This document shows, in pieces, positions 38,582 through 49,123 of a DNA stretch of 64,000 bases; the first letter of the stretch is position 1; every line of letters begins with the position of its first letter. Origin of the DNA: an uncultured Gammaproteobacteria bacterium (GTDB lineage Bacteria > Actinomycetota > Acidimicrobiia > Acidimicrobiales > Aldehydirespiratoraceae); NCBI GenBank assembly GCA_964196195.1, contig CAXMSE010000032.1, positions 801 to 64,800 on the forward strand, in the 5' to 3' direction. Made by a program: the position numbers and the translations under genes. Below the pieces are notes generated by a model. That model did not search any database. It had not been told where the DNA came from and saw nothing but the letters and a program-made list of their open reading frames with translations.

Positions 38582-39748
38582 ATGCCCACCCGCGCCGGAT
38601 GGGGCGTGCTGGTCTCGGGGGCGGCATTCGTGATCGCCGGCCGCCTCTTCGGTGCTGTCGAATTCCTCGTCGCGGGTACGGTCGCGCTGGCAGCGGTGGT
38701 CATCGCCGTGGTGCTCAGGCGTGTCCGTCCATCCCAGATCGCGGTGGCGCGCCAGCTCACTCCGCCTCGAGTACCGGCGGGCGAGCCCGCACGGGTCGAT
38801 CTCGAAGTCATCAACCGCGCCGGCTACCGCACTCCCCTGCTCCGCCTCCACGACTCGGTCAGCGGCACACGAGGAGTTCACCTCTCACTCGCCCCGCTCG
38901 CGGCCGACGACGGCCGGGTCCAGGGCGCTTACCGGCTTCCCACGACGCGCCGCGGTGTGCTCGAGCTCGGGCCGATTCGGATCGATGATGTCGATGCCTT
39001 GGGACTCGCCCGGCGTAGTCACCGCGTCGACACCAAGGTGCGCCTCATCGTGCATCCGCCGATCGAGTCTCTCCCCCCCGTTCGCGTTCCCGCCGGCGAC
39101 GATCCCCTCCTCGGCGAGGAGCTGAGACAGTCGCTCGGCTTGAGCGACGAAGAGTTCGACGGTCTTCGCGACTATGTCCCCGGCGATGATCTCCGCAAGA
39201 TCCATTGGCCTTCGTCGGCCCGCCACGGCGATCTCCAGGTACGCCAGTTCCGGCCACCGCGCCACGGTCGTCTCTCGGTGGTGATCGACACTCGACCGCC
39301 CAGCGATTCCGCCATCGCTCTCGACTACACCACATCGATCGCCGGCTCGATCGCAGCCGCCGTTCTCGCCGCGGGCGACGCCACCCGGATCGACACCACC
39401 GATGGCCGCACTACGGAGATGCTCACAGGGGCATCCCAACTCGAGCCGATGCTCGAGTTCCTCGCCCTGCTCAAGGGAGGTAGCGGATCGATACACGCCT
39501 CGGTGCCCACGTCTCCGGGCAACATCGTGGCGGTATCGGCCGACCCGGCTCTCGTCAGCAATGCAGGGGCACGACGCCTCTTCGCCCAGCGCCTGCGAGC
39601 CTCTATCGTGATCACCGTCGACGCCGAGCGCTGGGGCAACTCAGAAACCGAGGGCAGCCGCACCGCCGACTGGCTCCACCTCACCGCCCCGGGCCAGCTT
39701 GCATCTCTGTGGCAACTGGGCCGCCAACGCCAGGTGGTGCGCCGATGA
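38582..39748 (+). CDS. DUF58 domain protein
   Basis: N-terminal TM helices, RRG, EFDGLRDYVPGDDLRKIHWPSSAR. Confidence 0.92.
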   Translation: MPTRAGWGVLVSGAAFVIAGRLFGAVEFLVAGTVALAAVVIAVVLRRVRPSQIAVARQLTPPRVPAGEPARVDLEVINRAGYRTPLLRLHDSVSGTRGVHLSLAPLAADDGRVQGAYRLPTTRRGVLELGPIRIDDVDALGLARRSHRVDTKVRLIVHPPIESLPPVRVPAGDDPLLGEELRQSLGLSDEEFDGLRDYVPGDDLRKIHWPSSARHGDLQVRQFRPPRHGRLSVVIDTRPPSDSAIALDYTTSIAGSIAAAVLAAGDATRIDTTDGRTTEMLTGASQLEPMLEFLALLKGGSGSIHASVPTSPGNIVAVSADPALVSNAGARRLFAQRLRASIVITVDAERWGNSETEGSRTADWLHLTAPGQLASLWQLGRQRQVVRR

Positions 39749-42069
39749 CCCCCCGTCGCCTTATCGGGTTTGTCGCCGAACTGGCTCTGTTGGGCCTCTC
39801 GGTTGCGGTCACTATCGGACTCGAACGCCTATTCGTCGATACGTCGTACCTCAACGACCTCATCGTCTTGGTGATCGCCAGCCACGGACTCGCCATCGTG
39901 GCCCGTCGGGCCGGTTTCGGCATGGCGGTGGCCGCGGCTGTGAGTGCGGCCGGCCTGCTCGTGGTGGGTAACATCCTGCTCTTCTCCGACGCTGCCGGTT
40001 CGATCATCCCGTCGGGCGAGACCCTCACGTTCCTGCGCTCCGACCTCCGTGAGGCCTGGACCATATTCTCGGCTGACTCCGCTCCTGTGGCACCGGTGCG
40101 GGGTTTCATCGTGGCCAGCGGATTCGCGCTCTGGTGGACGGCGTTCCTCGCCGACTGGGCCGCGTTCCGGCTCCGGTCACCCCTCGAGGCAGTGGCTCCC
40201 GCCACCGCACTGTTCGTGTTCGCGGCTCTGTTGGGAGCCGACGAGAACCAGATCGCCCACGGTGCGGCCTACGCGGCCGGCGTGGGCGGCGTACTCCTCA
40301 CGATGCGGGCCGATCGTCAGACCCGCGAGGAGGTGTGGGTGGCATCCGGCGCCGGGAAGGGAGTTTCCACCACCTTGCGCATCGGGGCCATGGTCGCCGC
40401 GCTTGCCGTGGTGTTCGGCGCGTTCGTCGGTCCGGCCATTCCCGGCGCGGGCGACGTGCTTCTCGACCCGAGCAACTGGGACAACGGTCCCCAGACCCGC
40501 TCGGTGATCAGCCCCCTGGTAGAGATCAACGCCTCCCTGGTCGAACAGTCCAACTTCGAGATGTTCTCGGTGAAGGTCGACGATCCCGAAGCCGACAAGA
40601 ACTACTGGCGGCTGATGGCGCTCACGGATTTCAACGGCCAGATCTGGAAACGCAAGAGCAACTTCGACAACATACGAGGCGCCGTCGGCACCGATGTGGC
40701 GGCCGATGTGCCGCGGCGCACGGTGCGCCAGGAGATCACCACCCGCAGTCTCGGCGGCATCTACCTGCCCGCCGCCTATGAGGTGAGCAATCTCGTCGAG
40801 ACCAGCAATGTCGACCTCGAATACGAGAGCGCAACCGGCGCCCTGGTGATCACCCGCGAGTCGGAGGCGCGGGCAGCCCGCGGCTTCACCTACGTTCTCG
40901 AGTCGGCCGTTCCCGAATACAGCCCCACCTCTCTGCCTGCCAGTGCCACGGCGGGGCTCGAGGCTTCGTTCGTGGAGGAACACACCTCCCTGCCACCCTC
41001 ATGTTCGAGCGGCGAGTCAACCCCGGGCGAGTGCTGGCCCGACAACGTCACCACGCTGGCTCAAGACATCACCGCCGGCGCCACCACCGACTACCAGCGT
41101 GTGCTCGCCCTCCAGAACCACTTCCTCGACCCCTCCAACTTCACCTACGACCTCGACGTGGCATTGCGTCACGATGTGAACGACATCGAAGACTTCCTGT
41201 ATGTCGTGCAGCGCGGCTACTGCGAGCAGTTCGCCTCCACCTTCGCCGCGATGGCCCGATCGATCGGGATCCCTGCCCGTGTCGCGGTGGGGTTCACCTG
41301 GGGCGACTGGGACGACGACCGCCAGGAATACGTGGTGCGAGGCGAACACGCCCATGCCTGGCCCGAGGTCTACTTCGCCGGCGTCGGTTGGGTGGTGTTC
41401 GACCCCACACCCGGCCGAGCACCCGCCCACGGTAGCGAGATCACCGGCCTTGTGCCGGCCCAGCTCAACGAGAACGACGCTTCCAACCGCGGCGGCGGAT
41501 CCGTCGCCGCACCTCCGAGCACGATCGCTCCCGGCATCACCGGCCAGCCCACCATCCCCGGCTTCGGCGAGGAACTCACAGTGCCCACCACCGTGCCGGC
41601 CGTGGGTACCGGCTCTGGAGACAGCTCCGGATCCGCTTGGCTTGTCCTGCTTCGGGCCGGCGTGGTGCTTGGGGCCCTCGCCTTCGCCTTGGGCGTCGTG
41701 CCCGCGCTTCGATTCCTTCTCCGCCGTCGCCGGCTTCACCGGGTGGCCGCCGACCCCTGTGGTCGTGCCGAACTCGCGTGGGACGATGCCGCCGGCGCCC
41801 TCTCACTGGTGGGCCTGGTTCAGGCCCCCCACGAGACACTCCCTGAGTTCATCAGTCGCGTAGGCCGCACCGGCACTCGGGTGGGGCCTCTCGCCCAGCT
41901 CGCGGGCGACGTCGGCGTATTGCGCTACTCCGTGCCCGCCGATCCCATTCCCCACGCCATCGCCGCTCAGAGCGCGGCGGCAGACGTGGTGCATACGTGC
42001 AGAGCTTCGCGAACGTTTACCCAGTTGTTCGTCGACGCCGTCGATCCCCGAACGCTCCGATTTTCCTGA
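39745..42069 (+). CDS. Membrane-bound transglutaminase-like protein (DUF3488/TgpA type)
   Basis: Multi-TM N-terminus, YWRL, GYCEQFA, HAWPEVYF, FDPTP triad; ATGA overlap with DUF58. Confidence 0.92.
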   Translation: MTPRRLIGFVAELALLGLSVAVTIGLERLFVDTSYLNDLIVLVIASHGLAIVARRAGFGMAVAAAVSAAGLLVVGNILLFSDAAGSIIPSGETLTFLRSDLREAWTIFSADSAPVAPVRGFIVASGFALWWTAFLADWAAFRLRSPLEAVAPATALFVFAALLGADENQIAHGAAYAAGVGGVLLTMRADRQTREEVWVASGAGKGVSTTLRIGAMVAALAVVFGAFVGPAIPGAGDVLLDPSNWDNGPQTRSVISPLVEINASLVEQSNFEMFSVKVDDPEADKNYWRLMALTDFNGQIWKRKSNFDNIRGAVGTDVAADVPRRTVRQEITTRSLGGIYLPAAYEVSNLVETSNVDLEYESATGALVITRESEARAARGFTYVLESAVPEYSPTSLPASATAGLEASFVEEHTSLPPSCSSGESTPGECWPDNVTTLAQDITAGATTDYQRVLALQNHFLDPSNFTYDLDVALRHDVNDIEDFLYVVQRGYCEQFASTFAAMARSIGIPARVAVGFTWGDWDDDRQEYVVRGEHAHAWPEVYFAGVGWVVFDPTPGRAPAHGSEITGLVPAQLNENDASNRGGGSVAAPPSTIAPGITGQPTIPGFGEELTVPTTVPAVGTGSGDSSGSAWLVLLRAGVVLGALAFALGVVPALRFLLRRRRLHRVAADPCGRAELAWDDAAGALSLVGLVQAPHETLPEFISRVGRTGTRVGPLAQLAGDVGVLRYSVPADPIPHAIAAQSAAADVVHTCRASRTFTQLFVDAVDPRTLRFS

Positions 42070-42105: not shown

Positions 42106-42495
42106 CTACTCGCCGGGCTGATCTTCGGGACGGTTGAACCGGTCACGCATCCGGGCTCCAGCGCCTCCCACGACGTCGCGGAAACCACCGCCGCGCATGT
42201 TGGAAGTCATCTGCTCGAGGCCGGCACGGCCCAGCTTGCGGGCGTTGCGCTCGAACCAGAGCACGCTGGCCAACATCAGGAGGAAGCCGACGAAGGCGAA
42301 GGCGAACGACACCGAGAGCAGTAGGACCATCAGCACGACTCCACACAGGAAGCCGAACGTGGCCCACTTCAGGTTGCGGAAAGCATGGGTGTAGATCGTG
42401 GTTTGGGAGACCTCGCGCGCGAGCGCGGGATCGGATTGATAGAGATGATCCTCGATCTCGGTGAGGATTCGTTGTTCATCCTCGGAAAGCGGCAC
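42106..42495 (-). CDS. DUF3040 family membrane protein
   Basis: PLSEDEQRILTEIE..L..SDP, two TM helices; AAGGAG SD before GTG 42495. Confidence 0.88.
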   Translation of the reverse strand: MPLSEDEQRILTEIEDHLYQSDPALAREVSQTTIYTHAFRNLKWATFGFLCGVVLMVLLLSVSFAFAFVGFLLMLASVLWFERNARKLGRAGLEQMTSNMRGGGFRDVVGGAGARMRDRFNRPEDQPGE

Positions 42496-42570
42496 CGTTG
42501 TCTCCTTGGCCCGGTTGTCGTCTTGCTCCAGTGTCGCACAGCACCACCCCCTCAACAACGCGGTGGGTAA

Positions 42571-43854
42571 TCAAAGATTGCAGTCGGGACCCCATTGTTG
42601 TTGGCCACGTTCCATCCGTCTCAGCCCCGATCCGGGCCTCGAAAGGGTGGCCGGCCCGATCGCGTTGCCACCGAAGCGCTCTCTGATTTCATCGACGACA
42701 CCATCAGCATCACTCCAGGAACGACCCTCGACATCGTCGAAACTCAGCTGTTGAGCGTGCGGCTCCACGAGTTGGCTGGCGCTTACGCCGAGCAGGCGAA
42801 CACCGGGCGAGGTGTCGACTCGGGCGAGGAGGGCTCCCGCCTCATGGGCTATCGAACGCGCTCCATCGATCGGAGAGAGCAGAGTCACCGACCTCGTGAT
42901 GGTCGTGAAGTCGCCAAAGCGGACCTTCACGGTGATCGTCCGACCCGCGACATTTGCGGCCCGCAGCCTCGAGGCGACAGCGTCGGCCATCCGTACGAGC
43001 TCCCTCGACAGGCGGTCGTCAACGAAGATGTCGTGAGCGAATGTCTCCTCGTGGCCTATCGATTTCACACCCTGATCGACAATCACCGGGCGCTCGTCAC
43101 GGCCTTGGGAGAGGAGATGAAGATGGCGCCCCAGGGCCGAACCGAGGGCCGCGGTCACTCGCTCTTCGGGCTGGGCGGCCAGATCGCCGACCGTCTCGAT
43201 CCCCATACGCGAGAGCTTGGCGCCGGTGGCGGGGCCCACGCCCCAGAGCGCACCCACCGCCAAGGGCTGAAGGAAGTCGAGCTCTGTACCGGCCTTGATC
43301 ACGTGCACGCCGGTGCCGAAGATCGGACCGGTGGCGCTCGGCTTGGGCTTGGCTCGTCCGGTGGCGAGCTTGGCGAGGAACTTGTTGGTGGCAACCCCGA
43401 CCGAACAGGTGAGCTGCTCCTCGGCGAGTACACGAGCTCTCAGCTCGGCCGCAATCGTTGGGGCTCGATCGCGGCCGTGGAGGGCACCGCGCACATCCAG
43501 GAACGCCTCATCGAGCGAGAGCGGCTCGACCAGGGGCGTCACATCGCGAAACAGTGCCATCACCTTCCCGCTCACCTCGCCGTAATAGGCGTGATCGCCG
43601 GTGAGAAACACCGCGTGGGGACACAGGCGTCGTGCTCGGGTGGTGGGCATCGCGGAATAGATGCCATATGAGCGAGCTACATAGGAGGCCGCAGCCACCA
43701 CGCCACGATCGCCGGTGCCTCCCACGACGACCGGCTCGGCGATCAGCTCCGGTCTACGGCGCAATTCACAGGAGACAAAAAAGGCGTCCATGTCGACGTG
43801 CAGGAAACCCAAGCTTCCATCCGGAGCGCTTCCCTCGGACCGTTGGGAACTCAC
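42571..43854 (-). CDS. dinB: DNA polymerase IV
   Basis: HVDMDAFF, AASYVAR, SLDEAFLD, KFLAKLA, LWGVG, KSIGHEETF. Confidence 0.95.
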   Translation of the reverse strand: MSSQRSEGSAPDGSLGFLHVDMDAFFVSCELRRRPELIAEPVVVGGTGDRGVVAAASYVARSYGIYSAMPTTRARRLCPHAVFLTGDHAYYGEVSGKVMALFRDVTPLVEPLSLDEAFLDVRGALHGRDRAPTIAAELRARVLAEEQLTCSVGVATNKFLAKLATGRAKPKPSATGPIFGTGVHVIKAGTELDFLQPLAVGALWGVGPATGAKLSRMGIETVGDLAAQPEERVTAALGSALGRHLHLLSQGRDERPVIVDQGVKSIGHEETFAHDIFVDDRLSRELVRMADAVASRLRAANVAGRTITVKVRFGDFTTITRSVTLLSPIDGARSIAHEAGALLARVDTSPGVRLLGVSASQLVEPHAQQLSFDDVEGRSWSDADGVVDEIRERFGGNAIGPATLSRPGSGLRRMERGQQQWGPDCNL

Positions 43855-44342
43855 TCCGGGCGCCGCTCGGCCCGCATCTCAGCCGGATTATCTCCGTAGG
43901 CGGCATAACTGAAGTGCCGGGGCTGCGTCCATGGCTCGCTCGTCCACTCCCGAAGTGGTTCACTCACCCACAGAGGGCTCGCGTTCAGGCGACCGTCGAC
44001 ACCTGTGGGATCGAGGAACTCCGCTGCGGTGACGATCCCGTCGGGATCCTCGAGAACAACGGCACCCTCGAAGCCGGCGGCGAGGTGAACTTCGACGTCG
44101 AGAAGCGTCTCCAGCTCGACGAACTCGACCGCGACCGTCCAGCACAAGCGTGCCCAATTGGCGACGGTGAGGCCGGTCTCCTCGCAGACCTCCCTGGTGA
44201 GTGCCTCCACCGGTGTCTCGCCGGCATCGACCACACCGCCCGGAGTGGTCCAGTCGATGCTGCCACCACGGCGCCGGTTGGCGACCAGCAGCAGGCCCCG
44301 CTCGTCGACGAGAAGACCCCCGGCAACTCTCCAATGACGCAC
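43851..44342 (-). CDS. NUDIX hydrolase
   Basis: Nudix box GGVVDAGETPVEALTREVCEETGL; GTGA overlap with dinB. Confidence 0.92.
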   Translation of the reverse strand: MRHWRVAGGLLVDERGLLLVANRRRGGSIDWTTPGGVVDAGETPVEALTREVCEETGLTVANWARLCWTVAVEFVELETLLDVEVHLAAGFEGAVVLEDPDGIVTAAEFLDPTGVDGRLNASPLWVSEPLREWTSEPWTQPRHFSYAAYGDNPAEMRAERRPE

Positions 44343-44377: not shown

Positions 44378-45091
44378 CTAATCAGCGGCGGAATTCTCCA
44401 CAACGGCCGCGCCGTTTCCGAGATCGGTAGCCACAACCTCGGCTTTCACCACCGCTGCGGTGGACACCTCAGCTGCAGGCGAGGATGAGGGGTCCGGTGC
44501 CGGCTCGTTCTCGGCCACGAGAACGAGAATCCCGGTGGATGAAGCGGCGATCACCACTCCTACGAGGGGAAACAGGAGTCTGCGTCGGATCCGCTTCTGA
44601 TCGCGGGCGACCTCGTCCTCCTCGTCCATCAGGCGATTCAGCCGTGAGGCGACGTCGGAAGTCTCGATCTCCAGTGAGGTCGACAGAACCTCGAGGTCCA
44701 CATCACGAAGCGCGATCGGGGTACCAAGGGGGAGTTCGCGAAGGCGATACACGAGCGCGAGGTAGCGGGCGAGAACCGCGTCGGGGCCCGAAGCATCCGA
44801 CATTTCGACCCCGGACCGGCTGACCGCTATAAGGCCCTCGTCCAGATCTATGACCAGCTGAGAACGCTCGGGCATCAGTCCGGCATCTTCGACCCCGTAG
44901 AGCCTCACCAGCCCAGATAAGAGCTGGTCGTCGACCACCCGTCGACCATGTTCGAGATCGTCGAGTTCGACCACCGTGAAATCGGTGTGGTTGGCAAGCT
45001 CTTCCAGGTCCAGGCCTGCGGCCACCCGAGCTTGGCGAAGCAGGGTGCCCAAACGACGTGGCGGCACCAGCGTGGTGAGATCGGTTTCCAT
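44378..45091 (-). CDS. XRE-family HTH protein with a BldD-like C-domain and a C-terminal TM helix
   Basis: LGTLLRQARVAAGL..LEHGRR..LYGV HTH; LVIDL; LARY..REL-X8-RDVD; QKRIRRR then ~22 hydrophobic residues. Confidence 0.8.
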   Translation of the reverse strand: METDLTTLVPPRRLGTLLRQARVAAGLDLEELANHTDFTVVELDDLEHGRRVVDDQLLSGLVRLYGVEDAGLMPERSQLVIDLDEGLIAVSRSGVEMSDASGPDAVLARYLALVYRLRELPLGTPIALRDVDLEVLSTSLEIETSDVASRLNRLMDEEDEVARDQKRIRRRLLFPLVGVVIAASSTGILVLVAENEPAPDPSSSPAAEVSTAAVVKAEVVATDLGNGAAVVENSAAD

Positions 45092-45108: not shown

Positions 45109-45831
45109 TCAGCGCCTGAATCTGAGGACGCGGTCGCGGAACCCCCACCAGGTGACCAACACCAATGCCTCCACCACGATCCAACTCGACATCTTGGAGG
45201 TTCCCCTGATTCGATCGGTGAACGAGATCGGGATCTCGGTGACCGAGCCGCCGGTGGCAAGAACCCTGTGAGCCATCTCGATCTGGAAGCCGTAACCGTC
45301 GGCTCGGATGGTGTGGAAGTCGATCGCGGCCAGTGCCTCGGAGCGATAGGCCCTGAACCCGCTGGTGGCGTCATTGACGCTGATGCCAAGCACCAATGCT
45401 GCATACCGGTTGCCCCACCTCGACAGGGCGCGCCGATACCACGACCAGTCCGGGATCGATCCGCCCGGCACGTAGCGACTACCGATGGCGAGATCAGCAC
45501 CCTCCTCGACTGCAGCCAGCAAGGTGGGAAGCACAGCGGGGTCGTGGGACAGGTCGGAGTCCATCTCCACCATCACGTCGAAGCCGTTGATCAGGCCCTG
45601 CTTGAAGCCCTCGCGGTAGGCCGAGCCCAGACCGGATTTCGCGGGGCGCCGCATCACCTCGACTACACCCAGCTCCTCCCCCACCCGCTCGGCGACGTCG
45701 GCCGTGCCGTCAGGGCTCGAATCGTCGACCACGAGCACTCGAGCATCCGGTGAGGCGGAGTGGAGTCGGCGGAGCACCTCTTCGATGTTCGCCGCCTCGT
45801 CGTAGGTGGGAAGAACAACCAAGACACGCAC
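45109..45831 (-). CDS. ppm1: Polyprenol monophosphomannose synthase (GT2)
   Basis: LPTYDEA, VDDSSPDGT, GLGSAY, EMDSDLSH, IGSRYVPGG, DATSGFR, GYGFQIE. Confidence 0.9.
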   Translation of the reverse strand: MRVLVVLPTYDEAANIEEVLRRLHSASPDARVLVVDDSSPDGTADVAERVGEELGVVEVMRRPAKSGLGSAYREGFKQGLINGFDVMVEMDSDLSHDPAVLPTLLAAVEEGADLAIGSRYVPGGSIPDWSWYRRALSRWGNRYAALVLGISVNDATSGFRAYRSEALAAIDFHTIRADGYGFQIEMAHRVLATGGSVTEIPISFTDRIRGTSKMSSWIVVEALVLVTWWGFRDRVLRFRR

Positions 45832-45896
45832 GGCCGTGAACTCTAGAGGCGGAGGCGCCACCACCACGCCACCGGCGTCTCGATAGGCTCGCGCCG

Positions 45897-46975: not shown

Positions 46976-47032
46976 ACTTTGATTCGTCCCGCGCGTCGCA
47001 TCGCGACCGAGAACATGGCACCATCTCACTCA

Positions 47033-47713
47033 ATGGGTACGCGAATTCTCACGGTGGAAGACGACGAACGAATCCGCACAGCCGTCAAGTTGGCCCTCGA
47101 GGATGAGGGCTGGGACGTCGAAGAGGCGGATAGCGGGGAGGAGGCCCTCAACGCGTTCACGCGCCAAGCGGCCGATGTGGTGTTGATCGACATCATGTTG
47201 CCCGGCATCGACGGCTTCGACGTGTGCAGGGCGATTCGGCGCGTCAGCGACGTGCCGATCGTGATGGTCACCGCTCGTGCCGACACCCACGACGTCGTGG
47301 CCGGGCTCGAAGCCGGCGCCGACGACTACCTCACCAAGCCGTTCGCCCCCAAGGAACTCTCCGCCCGCATCCGGGCTCTGCTGCGCCGAGCCCGCACCTC
47401 CGAGCCGGGGGCGCCTCAGATGATCTTCGGCGATCTCGAGATAGTGCCCGACGAGGGGGTCGTGCGCGTCGGCGGCGATGAAGTCCACCTCACCAAGACC
47501 GAATTCCGCCTCCTCGTCGAACTCGCCTCCAGCCCCGGCCGAGTATTCAGCCGGGAGGTGCTCCTCGAACGAGTATGGGGCTACGGCTACTTCGGCGATG
47601 GCCGTCTCGTCGACGTCCATATCCGTCGCCTGCGCACCAAGGTCGAGTCCGATGCCGCCAACCCGCGCCATGTCGTCACTGTGCGGGGACTCGGCTACAA
47701 GCTCCAAACCTGA
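47033..47713 (+). CDS. OmpR-family response regulator (MtrA/AfsQ1/CseB group)
   Basis: VEDD, DIMLPG, GADDYLTKPF, LTKTEF, VDVHIRRLR, TVRGLGYK. Confidence 0.95.
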   Translation: MGTRILTVEDDERIRTAVKLALEDEGWDVEEADSGEEALNAFTRQAADVVLIDIMLPGIDGFDVCRAIRRVSDVPIVMVTARADTHDVVAGLEAGADDYLTKPFAPKELSARIRALLRRARTSEPGAPQMIFGDLEIVPDEGVVRVGGDEVHLTKTEFRLLVELASSPGRVFSREVLLERVWGYGYFGDGRLVDVHIRRLRTKVESDAANPRHVVTVRGLGYKLQT

Positions 47714-47725
47714 GCGAGAGGTAGC

Positions 47726-49123
47726 TTGAGAAAAGTCTGGAGACGGCTCGGCCTGAGGGCCCGAATCACCCTGCTCTTCGCGCTCGGAGGTCTGCTCTTG
47801 TCGGTCACCATCGCGGTGGCCACCCTCACCCTGGCCCGCCAGAATCTGCTGGCCGACCGCGAAGATCGTGCCTTTTCGGTGGTCATCCGCAACGGAGACC
47901 GAGTGGCGCAACGCCTCACCGAGGAGACCGACGCCGAGGAGGTGGGCGCGATCTTCGATTCCCTCACCATCACTGAACGTTCCCACCCGCTGCTTCGCGT
48001 CGACGATGTCTGGACCGCCAGCAATCCCCAGGTGTTCAGCAACGAAAACGTGCCGAGCGTGCTCGTCGCCGCGGTCGAGAACGGGCACGCGGCGCGCATC
48101 CGCACCCGCCTCGACGACAAGCCGGCCCTGATCACCGGCATTCCCATCCCCAACCTCGATGCCGACTACTACGAGGCGGCTCTCGTCGACGATGTCGAAG
48201 GTGCGCTCAACACCCTCGGCATCATCGTCATCGGCGTGGCCACCGCCGCAACCCTCCTGGCCGCCGCCATCGGTTCGTGGGCGTCCAGGAGGGCGCTCAC
48301 CCCTCTGGTGGAGGTGCGAGCAGCCGCTGAATCACTCGCCGCCGGAGAGCTCGACACCCGCCTCGACCCTCCAGCCGATGCCGACCTCGCATCCCTCACC
48401 GCCTCCTTCAACGGAATGGCCCGCTCGCTCGAGGACCGCATCGAACGCGACGCCCGGTTCGCGTCGGAGGTGAGCCATGAGTTGCGCTCGCCGTTGATGA
48501 CGCTCAACGCCTCTGCCGAGGTCCTCAACAACAGCCGCGACGACCTCTCCGAGCGCAACCAGACGGCCCTCGACCTGCTTACCGACGACATCGGGAGGTT
48601 CACCGACCTCGTCGAAGACCTCCTCGAGATCAGCCGTTACGACGTCGGGTCGGCGGCTCTTCAGGCGGAGCCGATCGACCTCGTCGAATTTGTCCGCCAG
48701 GCGGTTGCCCACGGGCGCTACCCCGACACGAGCGTCAATGCCGAGACGCTGGAGTATCTGGTGATCGAAGGCGACAAGCGTCGCCTTGCCCAAGTGGTGG
48801 CCAACCTCCTCGACAATGCGGCCAAGTATGGCGAGGGCCACGTGGGCATCGAAGTTCGCGAGCGCCGCGACACTGTGCAGATGATCATCGAGGACCAGGG
48901 GCCAGGTGTGCCCTACGAAGAGAGAAGCGTGATCTTCGATCGTTTCTCTCGGGGTAGTGCCGGAGGAAGCCGGGGCCAGGGCACGGGATCGGGGTTAGGC
49001 CTGTCGTTGGTGACCGAACACGTCGGGCTCCACGGCGGACACGTGTGGGTGGAGGATCGCCCCGATGGCGGCCAGGGCGCTCGCTTCGTGGTGTCTCTTC
49101 CCAAGACGGATCCGATCGAATGA
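47726..49123 (+). CDS. HAMP-domain sensor histidine kinase
   Basis: Two TM helices, HAMP, SHELRSPL, NLLDNAAKY, DQGPG, GSGLGL. Confidence 0.95.
   Translation: MRKVWRRLGLRARITLLFALGGLLLSVTIAVATLTLARQNLLADREDRAFSVVIRNGDRVAQRLTEETDAEEVGAIFDSLTITERSHPLLRVDDVWTASNPQVFSNENVPSVLVAAVENGHAARIRTRLDDKPALITGIPIPNLDADYYEAALVDDVEGALNTLGIIVIGVATAATLLAAAIGSWASRRALTPLVEVRAAAESLAAGELDTRLDPPADADLASLTASFNGMARSLEDRIERDARFASEVSHELRSPLMTLNASAEVLNNSRDDLSERNQTALDLLTDDIGRFTDLVEDLLEISRYDVGSAALQAEPIDLVEFVRQAVAHGRYPDTSVNAETLEYLVIEGDKRRLAQVVANLLDNAAKYGEGHVGIEVRERRDTVQMIIEDQGPGVPYEERSVIFDRFSRGSAGGSRGQGTGSGLGLSLVTEHVGLHGGHVWVEDRPDGGQGARFVVSLPKTDPIE

Follow-up and report, generated by a model that had tools for sequence, protein, structure and literature searches.

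A predicted membrane-anchored BldD-like protein family with a half-conserved c-di-GMP motif

The window analysed here, a stretch of 64,000 nucleotides, contains a string of four minus-strand genes in which the gene for a BldD-like protein (P0001) follows a ppm1-like glycosyltransferase gene and precedes genes for a NUDIX hydrolase and a dinB-type polymerase. The first-pass annotation had described this string, and Pfam matches and coordinates bear it out. The genes, and the features within P0001, are the following.

45109..45867, minus strand: ppm1-like GT2 glycosyltransferase, upstream (Pfam Glycos_transf_2, E 2.1e-27)
44378..45091, minus strand: whole gene of the putatively membrane-anchored BldD-like protein P0001, 237 codons plus stop (ORF list and translation)
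44882..45055, minus strand: XRE-type helix-turn-helix (HTH), aa 13-70 (Pfam HTH_31, E 2.1e-10, 41.2 bits, cut-off 27)
44612..44866, minus strand: BldD-like C-terminal domain, aa 76-160, three short strands plus helices (hhalign, NCBIfam BldD model)
44696..44740, minus strand: R118-E-L-X8-R129-D-V-D132, counterpart of the BldD motif RxD-X8-RxxD (BLASTP and hhalign register)
44579..44596, minus strand: basic juxtamembrane run KRIRRR, aa 166-171 (from the sequence; R169, R170 and R171 conserved in the family)
44513..44578, minus strand: predicted transmembrane (TM) helix, aa 172-193 (Kyte-Doolittle; conserved P175, G178, A182 and G187)
44381..44512, minus strand: predicted extracytoplasmic tail, aa 194-237, a Pro/Ser/Ala-rich linker plus a terminal motif (topology from the positive-inside rule)
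44399..44428, minus strand: tail motif TDLGNGAAVV, aa 222-231 ([DEN][LIV]G.G[AG][AV] in relatives)
43851..44342, minus strand: NUDIX hydrolase, downstream, adjoining in related loci as well (Pfam NUDIX, E 3e-14)
42571..43854, minus strand: dinB-type Y-family DNA polymerase, downstream (Pfam IMS, E 1.1e-46; IMS_C, E 1e-28)

The ppm1-like stop codon and the ATG of the BldD-like gene are 17 nt apart, the NUDIX gene begins 35 nt 3' of the BldD-like gene, and the dinB-type start and the NUDIX stop share 4 nt. The translation agrees with the initial description of a 237-aa protein with an N-terminal XRE HTH, and Pfam HTH_31 is found there. The start at 45091 matches the N-termini of homologues, and given this conserved start and the 185 homologues detected at E<=1e-3, the possibility that P0001 is an ORF artefact was ruled out. 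Co-oriented ppm1, BldD-like, NUDIX and dinB genes recur in four of 32 related loci (L009, L011, L013 and L015); some of these genes, or an inositol monophosphatase gene, are still nearby in nine further loci, and none of them in the other 19. This synteny is read as a conserved core-genome neighbourhood and not as a sign of common function.

Several observations concern the surroundings of the gene. One relative, P0199 (398 aa), is called as a single gene in which a NUDIX domain (aa 308-369, E 9e-13) comes after the anchored BldD-like part; the call probably runs on into the conserved neighbouring gene, a true outside NUDIX domain being less likely. Directly 3' of dinB in the window lies a gene for a DUF3040 protein (42106..42558, minus strand; Pfam E 1.4e-18), followed by a plus-strand gene (39709..42069) encoding a membrane protein of 786 aa in which Pfam finds TgpA_N (E 3e-27) and a transglutaminase core (E 8e-28). 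On the other side, at 46979..49123 on the plus strand, are two neighbouring ORFs of 244 and 465 aa which by eye resemble a response regulator and a sensor histidine kinase.

P0001 consists of an XRE HTH, a BldD-like C-domain, a basic run, one predicted TM helix and a 44-aa outside tail. Its two-domain cytoplasmic layout is common to the BldD of Streptomyces (NF050110; PDB 2ewt, 4oaz and 5khd). That it is a BldD paralogue, as had been proposed from the sequence, is upheld by comparisons with soluble BldD proteins. BLASTP aligns P0001 with the BldD encoded in the same genome (P0121) over 165 aa covering both domains (E 6e-8, 27 % identity). When a profile of 149 family sequences, trimmed ahead of the TM helix, was compared by hhalign with one of 35 soluble BldD sequences (26 from genome loci, eight metagenomic and P0121), the cytoplasmic parts matched at 99.1 % (E 4.7e-19, 144 columns) and the C-domains alone at 96.5 % (E 8.8e-10, 70 columns); column-shuffled controls for the C-domain comparison gave E 0.075-0.43 in 10 of 10 cases. 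The NCBIfam BldD model (NF050110) aligns with aa 12-153, beyond the HTH, with an E-value of 9.3e-6 and a score of 25.5 bits that misses the curated equivalog cut-off of 250 bits. P0121 too is below this cut-off, matching in two pieces of 90.7 and 54.4 bits.

Pfam BldD-like_C (PF21179; gathering score 27 bits) has no match in P0001 at E<=0.1, and among the 39 longest relatives it has three, all below the 27-bit cut-off (24.4, 23.4 and 19.8 bits). A search of PDB sequences with the family profile returned XRE HTH domains only, and up to an E-value of 10 no chain of the BldD C-domain was among the matches. In whole-protein fold searches the HTH took up both match lists, and aa 75-168 were therefore folded alone, from an alignment of 33 fragments. 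The resulting AF2 model of the BldD-like C-domain has a pLDDT of 84.5, and Foldseek matches to it are weak (E about 1), with BldD C-domains at ranks 2, 5, 6, 9 and 12. On sequence comparison, the C-domain of P0001 is homologous to that of BldD. The P0001 family is a separate clade in the BldD superfamily and not a BldD orthologue; in a quick tree, 48 anchored and 34 soluble sequences are parted by one branch (SH-aLRT 99). One relative, P0232, has a weak Pfam Peptidase_M78 (IrrE-like) match at aa 99-155 (E 3.2e-5), over the C-domain region and not the tail, which may be due to chance or to a remote link between the two helical modules.

A HMMER search of 1.84 billion cluster representatives at 50 % identity detected 1401 proteins at E<=1e-3, 564 at E<=1e-10 and 165 at E<=1e-30, and the 150 matches listed, together with P0001, make up the 151 family sequences considered below. 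In both the BLASTP and the hhalign register, R118, L120, R129 and D132 of P0001 lie opposite R114, D116, R125 and D128 of BldD, so that the counterparts of R114, R125 and D128 are in register with equal X8 and X10 spacing and the bipartite signature is left incomplete by a leucine in place of D116. The first-pass annotation had reported exactly this combination for P0001, and the same half pattern proves to be family-wide among the matches listed and P0001: R118 is present in 151 of 151 sequences and R129 and D132 in 150 each, alongside Y110 (151/151) and R76 (148/151), the latter two residues from the position aligned with BldD Lys84. At position 120, none of the 150 residues present in the 151 sequences is Asp; L, V, A, I, T, Q and M are among those found, whereas each of the 26 soluble BldD orthologues taken from other genomes has the full RxD-X8-RxxD. 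Between the arginines, the loop is also unlike that of BldD, with a Pro-Gly pair (P122 in 110 and G123 in 146 of the 151 sequences, again the matches listed plus P0001). The alignments confirm that the R-X10-R-x-x-D pattern is more than chance, being invariant or nearly so in the family and in register with the BldD motif.

The two proteins differ in layout in the C-terminal part, soluble BldD being a cytoplasmic protein of about 160-180 aa, and P0001 one of 237 aa with a TM helix and an outside tail. The hydrophobic segment at aa 172-193, originally put forward as a membrane helix, scores 2.27 on the Kyte-Doolittle scale with a 19-residue window, and the segment scores >=1.6 in 119 of 120 close homologues, the exception being P0107, which deviates at its C-terminal end. 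Over the close homologues, the mean number of K/R per 15 residues is 4.7 ahead of the segment and 0.4 behind it. This concentration on the N-terminal side should place the HTH and the BldD-like domain in the cytoplasm, and together with the hydrophobicity and the conserved residues it supports a predicted membrane tether of N-in/C-out topology. Among the matches listed and P0001, one TM-like segment is present in 140 of 151 sequences, two in five and none in six, most of these six being short or apparently truncated. The half motif and the helix are thus conserved together in the homologue survey, which covered these same 151 sequences.

The helix is conserved in sequence as well as in hydrophobicity. 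The family pattern is P-x2-G-x3-[AG]-x4-G, with P175 in 136, G178 in 143, A or G at 182 in 141, T184 in 102 and G187 in 140 of the 151 sequences (matches listed plus P0001). An anchor alone would not need this much conservation, which is compatible with packing between helices or with an intramembrane protease recognising the segment. The titles and abstract openings listed in full-text literature searches, mostly outside subscription journals, describe no membrane-bound relative of BldD, and within that scope the earlier statement that none has been described holds.

The tail had been called short and of low complexity, a description that stands for the Pro/Ser/Ala-rich linker but not for the conserved terminal motif, which occurs in 110 of 120 close homologues (as a single copy in 84 and in two to four copies in 26). 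The motif is present in three of 149 distant representatives, and other branches of the family have a related short motif at the end. A six-frame scan of the genome with a related broader pattern returned this gene and one unrelated frame only; since the motif is unique in the genome, its reading as a shared sorting signal was ruled out. Tail length across the 151 sequences (matches listed plus P0001) ranges from 0 to 431 residues. In 23 of the 149 representatives (e.g. P0151, P0175, P0187, P0193, P0197, P0200 and P0203), which form one clade in a quick tree, the outside part is a domain of 170-390 aa with an invariant HExxH and the consensus LAHE.GHA.D ... WW...G..DF..G.GDFAEA. Apart from one weak M48 match, no Pfam family was assigned to this domain at E<=1e-3, and in the ESM Atlas the long tail of one relative matched unnamed clusters at 0.87-0.89, the peptidase-like leads at 0.78 being too low for use. 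The domain looks like an undescribed outside zinc-peptidase-like module carried on a BldD-like anchor.

The HTH differs from that of BldD in charge, acidic in the anchored family and basic in BldD. P0001 has a net charge of -5 over aa 10-72; the family mean is -3.2, with 132 of 143 sequences at or below 0, against a mean of +4.2 for soluble BldD (n=35). In the helix aligned with the recognition helix of BldD, an invariant Lys of BldD is replaced by Ser or Thr and acidic residues are conserved, an acidic residue being common at position 42. Because the HTH is acidic, DNA binding by P0001 is doubtful, and judged from its composition a protein partner appears about as likely an output as classical repression. 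Bitopic one-component regulators such as ToxR, CadC and TcpP combine an OmpR-type winged helix with a single TM helix and a part that senses outside the cytoplasm. P0001 would share this bitopic logic, but has an XRE HTH and a nucleotide-receptor-type domain instead, with DNA binding in doubt.

The first-pass annotation had left it as a question whether the genome also has a canonical soluble bldD, and it does. P0121 (173 aa; contig C108, L001:1255-1773, minus strand) contains the complete RxD-X8-RxxD and matches Pfam BldD-like_C (E 1.9e-19), and its best PDB matches are the BldD structures 2ewt and 4oaz. Canonical copies of this kind end about 50 aa past the motif, without a TM segment. The genome also has 14 GGDEF matches and can therefore probably make c-di-GMP.

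The sources of the homologues are named as Acidimicrobiales, Acidimicrobiia or Actinomycetota. At E<=1e-15 the family was detected in at least five of 401 genomes across the phylum and at least 29 of 201 in the order, the genome of the window being included in both samples and the counts being lower bounds, as only six or 13 first-look candidates were scored per genome. Two members lie beyond the class-level group; each combines the half motif with a TM segment and a tail that is long and of low complexity. Several genomes of the order sample, among G472, G515, G547, G543, G588 and G424, have two to four family-profile matches, so that paralogues also exist within the anchored family. Closer to the window, all candidates were scored in three genomes of its own family, and the gene was found in none of them. 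In G554 (L073), about 70 bp separate ppm1 from NUDIX and no gene lies in between, and in G433 (L074) and G503 (L075) a DUF3040 gene is directly 3' of ppm1. The gene is subject to a presence/absence polymorphism at exactly the ppm1-NUDIX site, and is dispensable.

Canonical BldD-like_C proteins are more widespread, with matches in 150 of the 401 phylum genomes and 158 of the 201 order genomes (tallies that take in 12 and two unpublished genomes, respectively, none with the anchored family). They are present in 28 of the 29 family-positive genomes of the order sample, the exception being 91 % complete, and in 130 of 172 family-negative genomes, so that the former proportion is only mildly higher; given how common BldD is in the order, this co-occurrence is weak evidence of a link. 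Genomes of family f21 (e.g. G007, G052, G067, G095 and G382) have up to four or five PF21179 matches each, and the three BldD-like_C copies inspected there (in G052, G067 and G382) are soluble with a full signature. Long open frames around canonical BldD-like_C at L067-L071 were set aside as N-terminal read-through of a soluble protein without a TM segment.

An interpretation of the half motif can start from what is known of BldD. There, R114 bridges both c-di-GMP dimers, D116 touches the second dimer only, and the first dimer has its guanines read by R125 and D128; in the available portions of the two reports (PMC4151990, PMC5499655), these motif residues are solvent-exposed and described only as c-di-GMP contacts. 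According to the second report (PMC5499655), binding is ordered, with motif 2 filled first: the D116A C-domain still binds c-di-GMP at motif 2 (Kd 1.6 uM, 2:2 stoichiometry), and D128A abolishes binding. The half-loaded BldD dimer is described in the same text as loose in solution and monomeric at low concentration, and D116A as null in vivo. The residue pattern of P0001 equals that of BldD(D116A), seen half-loaded as BldD2-(c-di-GMP)2 in PDB 5tzf and 5tzg, with the motif 1 Arg kept, its Asp absent and motif 2 complete. The mutant is engineered, soluble, weakly dimerising and null in vivo, whereas the pattern in P0001 is natural, invariant in the family and joined to a TM helix.

The reading we favour, to which we give about an even chance of being right, is that of a half-site BldD paralogue held at the membrane as a c-di-GMP-bridged dimer and open to an input from outside. 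P0001 would be a bitopic protein whose cytoplasmic part corresponds to BldD in its entirety, in diverged form. It keeps the residues for the first dimer of c-di-GMP, namely the counterparts of motif 2 (R125 and D128) and of the bridging R114, with R76 near the position of the phosphate-contacting Lys84 of BldD, and lacks the motif 1 Asp (D116) that BldD uses for the second dimer only. Bridging by one dimer is proposed because the first-dimer residues are kept and this second-dimer-only counterpart is lost. Two copies could be kept close by the TM helix, with its small-xxx-small pattern, and a single c-di-GMP dimer might then bridge them at two proteins to two nucleotides, making the membrane state a natural equivalent of the half-loaded state of BldD(D116A). 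The variable outside part, a short motif here and the HExxH domain in some relatives, may provide a second, extracytoplasmic input. Given the 14 GGDEF matches, c-di-GMP is a plausible ligand; its binding, the 2:2 stoichiometry, the dimerisation and the output are all inferred for P0001, and the output is the least certain step. As BldD D116A is reported to be null and not stably dimeric (PMC5499655), the half site may be non-functional unless the dimer is otherwise held. A complex prediction with two copies of aa 76-198 and two c-di-GMP molecules scored 0.17 against a mark of 0.42, and reads neither way on dimerisation.

Rather unlikely, in our estimate, is that the architecture and ancestry are as described but that R76, R118, R129 and D132 no longer serve c-di-GMP, having been turned over to another ligand (a guanine nucleotide or a protein partner) or to fold stabilisation in a membrane signalling module. 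The incomplete signature of every member, with Asp at position 120 in none of 150 cases, is what such a change of use might leave, and the altered Pro-Gly loop, an identity to BldD of only 27 % and the null phenotype of D116A reported in PMC5499655 point the same way. Against this, the corresponding residues of BldD are exposed and, as far as the portions of PMC4151990 and PMC5499655 go, have no described part other than contacting c-di-GMP; their invariance and exact X10 spacing in so divergent a family fit a retained nucleotide site best, and GGDEF genes are plentiful in the genome.

It is improbable that P0001 is a transcription factor tethered to the membrane, inactive in that state and freed by a site-1 cut in the tail followed by an intramembrane cut, after which the released HTH and C-domain would act like a soluble BldD-type regulator. 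The conserved helix-destabilising residues of the TM segment (P175, G178 and G187, at the frequencies given above), the short conserved motifs in the variable outside parts, which are possible protease or ligand sites, and the HExxH domain of 23 of 149 relatives would all suit such a scheme. The Gly/Ala pattern suits helix-helix packing equally, though, and the acidic HTH tells against binding to DNA also once the protein is freed. In the window the BldD-like gene has no linked protease gene, its neighbours identified by Pfam being ppm1, NUDIX and dinB.

An extended form of the favoured dimer, in which P0001 would be a natural half-site c-di-GMP receptor whose membrane replaces the second dimer, would combine an outside signal with the nucleotide level and would also form mixed pairs with soluble BldD, is decidedly improbable as a whole. 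Such c-di-GMP-bridged pairs are conceivable because the C-domains of BldD touch through the nucleotide only, and they would hold BldD at the membrane, the anchored paralogue serving as a nucleotide-dependent anti-BldD decoy. Very improbable is a RodZ-like morphogenetic anchor whose HTH binds MreB or another protein and organises envelope synthesis: the layout equals that of RodZ (a cytoplasmic XRE-type HTH, which here is acidic, a basic juxtamembrane run, a single TM and a Pro-rich outside linker), two MreB genes are present in the genome while RodZ_C is without a match there at E<=1e-3, and a polyprenol-phosphate glycosyltransferase gene adjoins, but the RodZ-type HTH_25 (E 6e-4, 20 bits) is below its cut-off of 24.6 with HTH_31 fitting far better, the NCBIfam RodZ match is weak (E 0.096), P0001 lacks RodZ_C (PF13464) and has a BldD-type domain inserted ahead of the membrane that RodZ does not have, and the patchy distribution (at least 29 of 201 order genomes, none of three in the same family) disfavours a core shape factor, which would be expected to be more widespread.

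BldD is the textbook example of dimerisation through a c-di-GMP tetramer, and the forms described so far are all soluble and have the full signature. The anchored family combines an invariant half signature with an obligatory TM helix conserved in sequence and with exchangeable outside modules. The family is sizeable, with 165 clusters at 50 % identity matching at E<=1e-30, and comes here almost only from uncultured Acidimicrobiia-type genomes. If these proteins do not bind c-di-GMP, they would be an example of the re-use of a nucleotide-receptor domain. If they do, nature would have provided a test of the sequential-binding model: one intercalated dimer would be shown capable of acting as a working signal once the partners are pre-concentrated, and the c-di-GMP signalling of actinobacteria would gain a class of membrane-bound effectors.
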